IMG/VR virus record: IMGVR_UViG_2913152634_000003
DNA: 42,830 nt
Origin: a virus
Lineage: Duplodnaviria; Heunggongvirae; Uroviricota; Caudoviricetes
Direction: 5' to 3' (one strand)
Below, in pieces: positions 9,001 to 12,000 of this stretch; positions within the stretch are counted from its first letter, which is position 1, and each line of letters begins with the position of its first letter. The position numbers are program-made.

Positions 9001-12000
9001 GAAGATGATTTGATTTTGCCATCGCTGCATATGGCAAATCGCGAACTGCGTAGGGCGAAGAATCATGTCCAGAAGTGGGAGCGAGTCTGCGCCGCGCTGC
9101 GGGAGCTGAACAAGCACCGGGATATGGTTGCCGGGATTTGTCGGAAGTCCGGGCAATGAGCGGATGGTGCAGGCCTGAAATCATGATACTAACAATGAAG
9201 GTAAAATGCATCGGCAGTCTGATTGGTCGTAGTGAGGCGGCGGTCAGGATGAAAGCCCGGGTTAAGGGAATAAGCCTGATTCTGCGGGGGGATTTTCACC
9301 AGTCAACAAAATATCCGTAGCGCGATAACGGTCAAAAATCATGGCGCTGACACTTTTGTGCCACTGGAGATGACTGTACCTAAGTTCAGGGGAGAAGAAC
9401 ACGTCCGGTGGGATGGTCGGGCCAGATTTAAAGGGCAGGTCATGGCTCCAGCCTGTACGCTGGCAATGGAGGCTGCCTGGCGGGAAATTGATATGGGAAC
9501 CACGCCACTCAGGGATTTACTGCCGGTCCAGAGAATAAATTCCTGTTACGGTTACACCACTGTGATCTTGCAAGTGCAGGAAAGTAGGTCTACACGGTAA
9601 CGCGAGTGCGTGTAACTTTTGATGTTATTTCCGTAGAAACACCGGACAAATTTTCGCTGGCAGGTCATGCTGAAGGTATAATTCTGCAGATTATGGACAA
9701 TTACGGATATCCGGCAAGAGCCGGAAAAAGCATGCCGCCTCTAATTCTCAGTGGAAGATGGACTTGATTATACTCATTGCATTGTCAGAAATAGTTATCC
9801 ATTAAAGGCTGGCTATTCCAAACAGGATGTTGATTACAAAAATGTAATCAACATGTAAGGTTTATACTCTTCAATATGCGTATAATTTTCCTTATTTTGT
9901 TAACTTTAAATAAAAAGCTATGCACGAGGTAAAGTCGGATAAGTTTATCTGGATATAATATATATTATTTGTAGTGTTTATAACTTTATTTCATGATAAC
10001 CAATAAAAGGAGTTTTTTATGAGGAACATAATGGCTGGTTTTTTAATATTCCTGTCTTCTGCTGCTTATGCTGATATCAATCTGTATGGTCCTGGTGGCC
10101 CGCATACAGCCTTGCTTGATGCAGCCAAACTTTACGCCAAAAAAACAGGTGTTATAGTGAATGTTCATTACGGCCCACAGAACAAATGGAATGAAGATGC
10201 CAAAAAAAATGCAGATATCTTGTTTGGCGCATCAGAACAATCTGCTCTGGCTATCATTCGGGACCATAAAGACAGCTTCAGTGAAAAAGATATTCAGCCT
10301 CTTTATCTGCGAAAAAGTATTTTACTGGTAAAGAAAGGTAATCCTAAAAATATCCGGAGTATTGACGACCTGACCAGACCCGGGATTGGCATAATTGTTA
10401 ATGATGGTGGTGGTACCAGTAATACATCAGGCACTGGCGTCTGGGAAGATATTGCCGGACGTAAAGGGAATATAGAAACTGTCGCCGCAATCCGAAAAAA
10501 TATTATTTTATATGCGCCCAATAGCGGAACTGCACGTAAGGCTCTTGAGAATCAGCCTGAAGCAGATGTCTGGATAACCTGGGCTGACTGGGCAGCCAGT
10601 AATCCAGGAATTGGTGATGTCGTGGAAATAGCGCCAGACTACGTGATATGGCGTGATATGAACATTACAGTACGTCAGGATGCAAATGATGAAACCCGTC
10701 GATTTGCAGAATGGCTACAAACCGATGAAGCGGCGCCTGCATTCAAAAAATATGGCTGGACCAGGAAAGGCACTTGACATCCATCCACGTCCTTCAGGAC
10801 GTGGATTCTTTTTCCGGATGCCGCGCCAGCGGCATGTAGGGGCAGCTCACAAAACGGAAAAAATTGTACGCTAAGCCTCGCCAGGTGAACTGAATTCATT
10901 CCGATATGGGAATTCCCATATCGGGCGAAAACGGTTTGCTGTAACGGCAGAGTTAAGTAGAATTGCTGCGGGTGCTTGAGGCTATCTGCCTCGGGCATGA
11001 ACACCAACGGCAGATAGATAAAAGCCCCACCCGACTATAAATCGAAGTGAGGCCCCTATATGCTCGTCACATATAGATTGCCTCTTACGGACCGAAAGGT
11101 CAAGGAGAAGCAGGCTATGAAGCAGCAAAAGGCGATGTTAATCGCCCTGATCGTCATCTGTTTAACCGTCATAGTGACGGCACTGGTAACGAGGAAAGAC
11201 CTCTGCGAGGTACGAATCCGAACCGGCCAGACGGAGGTCGCTGTCTTCACAGCTTACGAACCTGAGGAGTAAGAGACCAGGCGGGGGAGAAATCCCTCGC
11301 CACCTCTGATGTGTCAGGCATCCTCAACGCACCCGCACTTAACCCGCTTCGGCGGGTTTTTGTTTTTATTTTCAACGCGTTTGAAGTTCCGGACGGCGCC
11401 GGAATAGAATCAAAAATACTTAAGTAGCGCGCAGGGAGAAGAGGGATGGACCCCGAACAGGGGAGTGCTATTTATCTGGAAGGATTCTGTTGATGAAAAT
11501 CGAAGAATTACGTGAAATTTTTAGTGAAGATGGCCTCTATACTGTGCGCGTTGAGAAGGGCGCTATTGTCAGCCACTGCCGTATTAAATGTTTACAGTCT
11601 CAACAAAGGAAGAGTGGAGCTGCGTTAATTCATTTTGTGGATGGGCTTGTGACGGATGGTTTTATTTTGCGTGCAAATGAATTTGTCACATCGTTGCCGT
11701 CTCTGAAAGACGCTGGGATTAAGGCTGGTTTTTCTGCTTTTGAAGATGAGTGAATTCATCTACAATTCAGCGCAGGGCTGAACCCCTGTTGAGTAACACT
11801 GTGCCACCGGAGAAAGCCGATGGCGCAAAATTCCAGACTACACAATTCTGATAATTCAGCCGTCTTTGCCAGCAGGCACGGGCGGCGTTCTCATGCATTC
11901 AAATCTGACTGGTTCCAACACGACCCATGCACTGAAGAACAGGCCGAATGGCTGATTCAGAACTACCGCAGACGTGGGTATGAGTTTAGGAAAGCCCTCA

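Follow-up and report, generated by a model that had tools for sequence, protein, structure and literature searches.

The stretch of DNA analysed here (the window: 42,830 nt, IMG/VR virus record IMGVR_UViG_2913152634_000003) is a complete lambdoid prophage, as judged from its open reading frame (ORF) list and profile searches. In its early-right region, flanked by ydaW (DUF1627) and hokD, it carries a gene that a preliminary description, made from the sequence alone, had taken for an orphan ModA-like periplasmic binding protein. With a probability of roughly 0.93, sequence comparisons identify this gene as paa (adfO), the prophage-borne representative of the AcfC/PEB3/Paa solute-binding proteins, a periplasmic family whose genes stand alone. 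The finding of paa is in itself already known: the NCBI pipeline names the gene, it serves as a virulence marker, and publications already place it in a prophage beside ckf. New here are the exact limits of a portable paa unit, the recognition that the “fimbrial protein” pseudogene upstream is a PapH-like fragment unrelated to that unit and joined to it at about position 9816, and the finding that family members turn up again in several distinct cargo slots of phages. Coordinates of all window features are collected in Table 1.

The 1.8-kb locus (9301–11100) is 100% identical at the nucleotide level to records in which the NCBI annotation pipeline PGAP calls the coding sequence (CDS) “paa: AcfC family adhesin Paa”, and the exact window protein is public as “AcfC family adhesin Paa” on 882 contigs. 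Across the same span, the O145 PPompW phages, whose annotation reads “Paa/adherence factor AdfO”, show 98.7% nucleotide identity, while O157:H7 copies of the CDS are 98.8% identical and the window protein differs from its cluster representative by about 6 residues. A DNA search located the CDS in 610 of 5,426 complete E. coli genomes; of its locations, 581 are chromosomal and 36 are on plasmids. In prophage CP-933O, which corresponds to OI-57, adfO (paa, Z2053) adjoins the hok-family killer gene ckf (Z2054) (PMC8565820, PMC9729726, PMC2749873), by which it is invariably accompanied (PMC8565820); the gene arrangement of the window is this adfO–ckf arrangement with hokD in the ckf position. Compared with Paa/AdfO of attaching-and-effacing (A/E) E. 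coli, i.e., porcine enteropathogenic E. coli (EPEC) O45 and Z2053 of O157:H7 EDL933, the window thus holds the same gene, with ydaW upstream and a hok-family gene downstream, the differences being confined to the allele and the host prophage. Records whose left arm is identical, from chicken isolates, have an integration site unlike the ompW site used in O157, O145 and O121; in strain E2 it is potB/potC. In PHROGs, the window protein falls into phrog_11834 (E = 5e-174), labelled “unknown function”, which is an annotation gap, since NCBI names the gene as the virulence factor paa.

Paa matches the Pfam family SBP_bac_11 (5.5e-35). In a phmmer search against all Protein Data Bank (PDB) sequences, it matches V. 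cholerae AcfC (4jb7) at 3e-82 and C. jejuni PEB3 at 2e-81, with sulfate-binding proteins at about 1e-3 and ModA at about 0.7. An AlphaFold2 model built from a 35-sequence alignment, with a mean predicted local distance difference test score (pLDDT) of 90.6, is confidently that of a class-II binding protein with two lobes that superposes on both AcfC and PEB3. A Foldseek comparison of this model with the PDB gives template modelling (TM) scores of 0.90/0.97 for AcfC 4jb7, with a root mean square deviation (RMSD) of 1.1 Å and 52% identity, and of 0.87–0.88 for PEB3, which is 53% identical to Paa. Then follows a large gap, below which lie ModA (TM 0.65–0.72, 11–20% identity) and the sulfate-binding proteins (TM of about 0.7), with ModA/Sbp RMSDs to the Paa model of 3.6–4.5 Å. 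The fold similarity to ModA-like proteins that the preliminary description had expected of a structure prediction is therefore present, and ModA/Sbp are the nearest folds outside the protein's own family; the ModA label, however, does not carry over to the family, which is AcfC/PEB3/Paa. Membership of ModA/Sbp was rejected, given the cut-offs of the curated models and the E-values against the PDB: Paa reaches 21.5 bits where the cut-off is 62.5 for TIGR01256 modA, 12–15 bits against cut-offs of 253–470 for PRK03537 and PRK10677, and stays under the cut-offs of all curated ModA, Sbp and CysP models.

These scores bear directly on whether Paa might act as an orphan oxyanion binder of the ModA/Sbp type, with molybdate, tungstate or sulfate as ligand, either keeping a nutrient sequestered or supplying or blocking an ATP-binding cassette (ABC) importer of the host, which we regard as very unlikely. 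Paa does have the class-II two-lobe fold and the SBP_bac_11 match in common with ModA/Sbp of ABC importers, it gives weak matches to sulfate-binding protein models, and the authors of the AcfC study propose that AcfC binds sulfate (PMC5976639). Set against this are the modA, Sbp and CysP scores far under their cut-offs and the marginal E-value and identity of the ModA chains; moreover, PDB titles show that relatives were crystallised with organic acids rather than oxyanions, and modBC and cysTWA are absent nearby. ModA/Sbp belong to ABC importers, whereas the window is without permease or ATPase genes.

The 35-sequence alignment, which comprises the window protein and homologues 50–98% identical to it, contains 49 invariant columns. 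The invariant motifs are intact in Paa, namely GPGGPH24-29, GPQ52-54, S72, SNTSGT134-139, WED142-144, NSG168-170, WxTWxDW185-191 and R212. Helices of the Paa model begin at residues 29, 54, 73, 141, 169 and 189, and most of the invariant motifs lie at or adjoin these N-termini, with WED142-144 inside helix 141–147 and R212 on strand 211–218. Helix N-termini are the classical anion hold in Sbp/ModA-type proteins, and because the motifs of the modelled Paa are placed at or next to such termini, they should grip a single small acidic ligand within the cleft. According to their PDB titles, PEB3 3fj7 contains L-phospholactate and AcfC 4jb7 D-aspartic acid; a table in a review gives phosphoenolpyruvate (PEP) and 3-phosphoglycerate (3-PG) as PEB3 ligands (PMC8835900). 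PEB3 (2HXW, 3FJ7, 3FIR, 3FJG) shares the SNTSGTGVWED loop with Paa, yet SNTSG is preceded by K135 in PEB3 and by T in Paa, and PEB3 is a chromosomal N-glycoprotein whereas Paa is prophage-borne. AcfC (4JB7) shares all cleft motifs with Paa and resembles it in horizontal acquisition and in a signal peptide, which for Paa is a predicted one.

Export to the periplasm is predicted from the N-terminus of Paa, where, in line with the preliminary description, MRN, IMAGFLIFLSS and AAYA have the layout of a signal peptide and are followed by D19; inspection of the sequence finds no lipobox Cys. The first residue of the crystallised mature PEB3 chains is the one that aligns with D19, and residues 1–20 have low pLDDT in the Paa model. 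By fractionation, AcfC is periplasmic (PMC5976639).

As noted in the preliminary description, Paa has no permease or ATPase partner: near-identical and related records spanning the 42.8-kb window carry no such annotation, and the window ORF list consists of phage genes and type III secretion system (T3SS) effector genes only. We inspected eight further homologue contexts for transporter partners, and in all eight the homologue is a stand-alone gene, arguing that the lack of such a partner characterises the family and is not a quirk of this phage. On an Edwardsiella chromosome, the homologue is flanked by about 960 bp and about 550 bp of empty DNA; on Salmonella IncFII plasmids it lies amid insertion sequence (IS) elements; and in Helicobacter, in Francisella and on a metagenome contig it is flanked by housekeeping genes. 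Enterobacter, V. cholerae and an Aeromonas P2-like prophage make up the eight. In nearly all cases, the upstream region of the homologue is AT-rich and the GC content of its CDS is under the host level. In phages, family genes lie in the gpA–ogr cargo slot of an Aeromonas P2-like prophage (L024, 5001–5774), between integrase and tail fibres on one viral contig (L068, 1461–2207), and after the tail genes M and L, beside ParB and phosphoadenosine phosphosulfate (PAPS) reductase genes, on another (L065, 4001–4753). One of the latter two contigs carries an 87% relative and the other a 69% relative. Unrelated phages have thus picked up Paa-family members repeatedly.

The portable paa unit is of about 1 kb and is delimited by two comparisons. 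First, the span 9815–10841, and only that span, aligns at 86% to an IncFII plasmid (L008, NZ_CP122805.1) of enterotoxigenic E. coli (ETEC), which encodes a 93%-identical Paa variant at 5001–5759 (PGAP “substrate-binding domain-containing protein”) and in which the span has a Tn3 transposase remnant on its left, not the fimbrial fragment seen in the window. Second, homology to the ydaW phages without paa, Rac-SA53 and vB_EcoS-683R6, in which lygF and other genes lie 3′ of ydaW, stops at about 9128 by BLAST. The unit boundaries were taken from these sources because a joined-flanks query for an empty site returned no record with adjacent flanks among the 5,426 E. coli genomes. ydaW, the fimbrial fragment, paa and hok occur together in 34 of the 44 IMG/VR E. 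coli viral contigs that carry paa, most of the remaining 10 being interrupted by contig ends, and the paa block is also found behind different replication modules. The self-contained, moron-like architecture claimed in the preliminary description is borne out: the unit has its own terminator and deviant composition, comes with no transporter partner, is absent from the ydaW phages and is present outside phages, on a plasmid. A methyl-accepting chemotaxis protein (MCP) gene of the ETEC plasmid (8497–10074, 2.7 kb from paa) was considered as an analogue of the V. cholerae chemoreceptor gene acfB and rejected, its product being Aer-like: it has a PAS domain at the N-terminus and lacks a periplasmic sensor domain.

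The region in front of paa was described earlier as one very AT-rich stretch, and its low GC content holds: 9601–10018 has a GC fraction of 0.342 versus 0.508 for the whole window and ranks in the lowest 1.7% of 418-bp windows, or the lowest 0.6% when the AT-rich effector end of the prophage is excluded. It is not a single spacer, however, since its left portion belongs to the 3′ part of a dead fimbrial gene. Only the part from about 9818/9859 to 10018 is noncoding, with a GC fraction of 0.244 (lowest 0.14% of 160-bp windows), and the paa CDS itself stands at 0.439 versus 0.508 for the window. The fimbrial fragment, whose 3′ part has a GC fraction of about 0.40, is broken by an internal stop and no fewer than two frameshifts, and the final ~38 nt present in the intact gene are missing from it; PGAP labels it “fimbrial protein; frameshifted; internal stop” and ends the pseudogene at 9858, i.e., running into the paa unit. 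It is 85% identical in nucleotide sequence to intact 195-aa genes that come second, i.e., in the PapH position, in pap-like chaperone-usher operons of plasmids and islands. The intact homologue matches Pfam Fimbrial, and the stitched translation from the window gave no Pfam match. We rejected the fragment as a marker of an ancestral paa locus because the fimbrial homology ends at 9817, where the plasmid-shared paa unit starts; its intact homologues reside in pap-like operons without paa.

Between the phage backbone and the fimbrial fragment lies filler DNA with an intact 54-aa ORF, for which a Pfam search returned no match. This ORF is a constant companion of the paa cassette in other prophages and is frameshifted in strain E2. 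Its stretch GRSEAAVRMKARVKGISL looks helix-turn-helix-like by eye only.

Within the spacer, a perfect inverted repeat precedes an invariant TATAAT by about 30 bp, and the repeat's inner ATTACA-N4-TGTAAT is unchanged between the prophage and plasmid copies; it is possibly an operator or regulator site, or else the relic hairpin of a former upstream transcript. The 24%-GC spacer probably holds a promoter of paa's own that is active in the lysogen. The strong Shine-Dalgarno sequence reported in the preliminary description is in place, as is the dedicated terminator on the 3′ side, with a folding energy of −16.9 kcal/mol (z = −3.9). The second hairpin beyond it, which retains its stem but has a changed loop in the ETEC plasmid copy, presumably resembles a repetitive extragenic palindromic (REP)-type element, for which it is a candidate. 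A 24-nt perfect palindrome, CCGATATGGGAATTCCCATATCGG, lies between the paa unit and sok/hok and is shared with related prophages. The hokD/sok module, in which a sok-type RNA element precedes hokD, is the counterpart of the O157:H7 OI-57 “ckf”; it lies outside the paa unit and yet nearly always adjoins paa.

Table 1. Features of the window, with positions counted from its first nucleotide.
Feature	Position	Strand	Basis or remark
Integrase	1-1119	-	First in the gene order
DicF small RNA	4534-4585	-	
Filler between phage backbone and cargo	9129-9352	+	BLAST end-points
Intact 54-aa ORF	9156-9320	+	ATG overlaps ydaW stop (ATGA)
Dead PapH-position-type fimbrial subunit gene fragment	9353-9817	+	PGAP, nucleotide comparison, three-frame translation
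Portable paa unit	9815-10841	+	About 200 bp of AT-rich upstream DNA, CDS, terminator, second hairpin
Perfect inverted repeat, 12-nt arms, ATGTTGATTACA-AAAA-TGTAATCAACAT	9827-9854	.	Repeat search
Candidate -10 hexamer TATAAT	9881-9886	+	Invariant in prophage versus plasmid alignment
Shine-Dalgarno AAGGAG	10007-10012	+	6 nt 5′ of ATG; conserved in ETEC plasmid copy
paa (adfO) CDS, AcfC/PEB3-family periplasmic solute-binding protein, 252 aa	10019-10777	+	Profile, phmmer, PGAP, model
Predicted Sec signal peptide, residues 1-18, cleavage AYA/D	10019-10072	+	n-h-c layout
Intrinsic terminator	10783-10806 (stem), to 10813 with U-tract	+	10-bp stem, 6 GC pairs, loop UUCA, then UCUUUUU
Second GC-rich hairpin, 7-bp stem AUGCCGC/GCGGCAU	10818-10835	+	Fold; no U-tract
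24-nt perfect palindrome	10901-10924		
hok/sok type I toxin-antitoxin module	10970-11272	+	Rfam sok 103.9 bits, Pfam HOK_GEF, PGAP hokD
hokD	11117-11272		
Three-tRNA cluster 3′ of Q	14584-14827	+	CAT-anticodon tRNA, then Lys-TTT, Arg-TCT
STnc100 small RNA match	15597-15783	+	
AT-rich T3SS effector cargo	39512-42830		Prophage end
NleG gene 1	39512-40147	+	
EspW remnant	40273-40800	-	
NleG gene 2	41430-42056	-	
EspM2	42240-42830	+	

What Paa does for the bacterium has been approached through mutants. As quoted in one report, paa plays a part in the adherence of porcine EPEC and in A/E lesion formation (PMC2749873), and another describes weaker HeLa adherence and reduced secretion of several proteins in an O157:H7 adfO mutant (PMC8565820). 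We lean, if by a little, towards an adherence effect that is indirect and proceeds via a periplasmic ligand-sensing or ligand-capture step. In the lysogen, paa would be transcribed from its own spacer promoter while the phage early operon is repressed; Paa would be exported to the periplasm via its Sec signal peptide and would close its cleft around a small acidic ligand, and adherence would be influenced indirectly, through signalling, chemotaxis or secretion. The secretion loss of the adfO mutant suggests such an indirect effect.

Four points weigh against this picture of a self-expressed, stand-alone ligand binder with an indirect effect. A consensus scan of 9859–10018 found no sigma-70 site of at least 9/12, and hand inspection found no good -35 hexamer. 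The SNTSGT-bearing loop (block 131–140) has a pLDDT of only 63 in the Paa model, although such lowered confidence is as expected of a ligand-gated loop. The Enterobacter homologue is located 690 bp downstream of a full ABC system that includes its own binding protein, so a link to transport may exist. Finally, the Paa literature labels the protein an adhesin, which is at odds with an indirect mechanism.

Taken literally, that label means that Paa would be exported past the periplasm to bind a host receptor directly, e.g., sulfated glycans or mucin, in early attachment of A/E E. coli. We consider a true surface adhesin of this kind rather unlikely, even though recombinant AcfC bound heparin, chondroitin sulfate and mucin in an enzyme-linked immunosorbent assay (PMC5976639). 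The Paa sequence has no anchoring or secretion signal other than that for Sec and no lipobox, its fold and invariant cleft motifs are of the small-ligand binding protein type, and its relative AcfC is periplasmic. Deletion of acfC altered mucin chemotaxis and gut distribution but left adhesion unchanged (PMC5976639), so that AcfC, unlike Paa as reported, has no adhesion phenotype. The loss of secretion of other proteins in the adfO mutant (PMC8565820) likewise speaks against direct receptor binding.

The acfC phenotype has also a bearing on a role in chemotaxis or signalling, in which ligand-loaded Paa would dock on a host chemoreceptor or sensor kinase, as maltose-binding protein does on Tar, and steer the cell toward mucosa-derived acidic metabolites. 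Besides the altered mucin chemotaxis and gut localisation of the acfC mutant, this co-receptor reading draws on the V. cholerae pathogenicity island (VPI), where acfC starts 15 bp after acfB, the gene of a dCache-type MCP, and on the family being stand-alone almost everywhere. We nevertheless hold it to be quite improbable, as there is no MCP among the window genes and the Aer-like MCP beside the ETEC plasmid copy, with its cytoplasmic PAS domain, offers no periplasmic docking partner. In V. cholerae, acfC is in one operon with acfB under ToxT control, whereas paa is solitary in the phage.

Broader versions of the same idea are tentative. Paa may be a solute-binding protein that plugs into a host chemoreceptor or transporter, which we judge unlikely. 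Equally speculative is the thought that Paa is not an adhesin at all but a phage-delivered periplasmic sensor, whose ligand-loaded form would dock on a resident chemoreceptor or sensor kinase and retune chemotaxis and secretion, and then adherence. The ligands of such a sensor module may be mucosa-derived acidic metabolites of the 3-PG, PEP, aspartate or sulfated-sugar type. A plug-in function that needs no co-transferred partner is supported by the repeated, independent captures in the lambdoid early region, the Aeromonas P2-like gpA–ogr slot, and the integrase-proximal and tail-distal slots.

We give almost no credence to a benefit for the phage itself, i.e., superinfection exclusion, as the preliminary description had entertained, or anti-phage defence in the periplasm. 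Its sole point in favour is the position of paa in a prophage cargo slot adjoining hok/sok, whereas Paa matches no PADLOC family, close relatives reside away from phages on plasmids, chromosomes and the Vibrio pathogenicity island, and the published phenotypes concern host colonisation (PMC5976639; PMC8565820).

The remainder of the prophage lies on either side of this cargo. After the integrase come the exonuclease, dicB/DicF, dicA/dicC-type repressors, ydaT, O-like and P replication genes and ydaW; 3′ of the cargo region come hokD/sok, DUF968, rusA, Q, three tRNAs, the lysis, head and tail genes, and the AT-rich effector cluster. The CAT-anticodon tRNA is called Met by ARAGORN and Ile by PGAP. 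In strain E2 (L003, NZ_CP104509.1, 1988827–2035656), the prophage sits between potC and potB, splitting the potABCD operon. The strain E2 prophage is ~100% identical across window positions 1–21397, with at least one 1-bp indel; it has an IS21 element in its terminase gene and most of its head and tail genes are missing, while the window copy is complete. The NleG/EspW/EspM2 effector cluster implies a host positive for LEE, the enterocyte effacement locus.

The “adhesin” label fits poorly with the periplasmic solute-binding fold of Paa. As paa/adfO is a standard virulence marker of enterohaemorrhagic E. coli (EHEC), atypical EPEC and porcine ETEC, its presence together with NleG, EspW and EspM2 genes classes this prophage as a virulence-cargo phage of an attaching-and-effacing strain.

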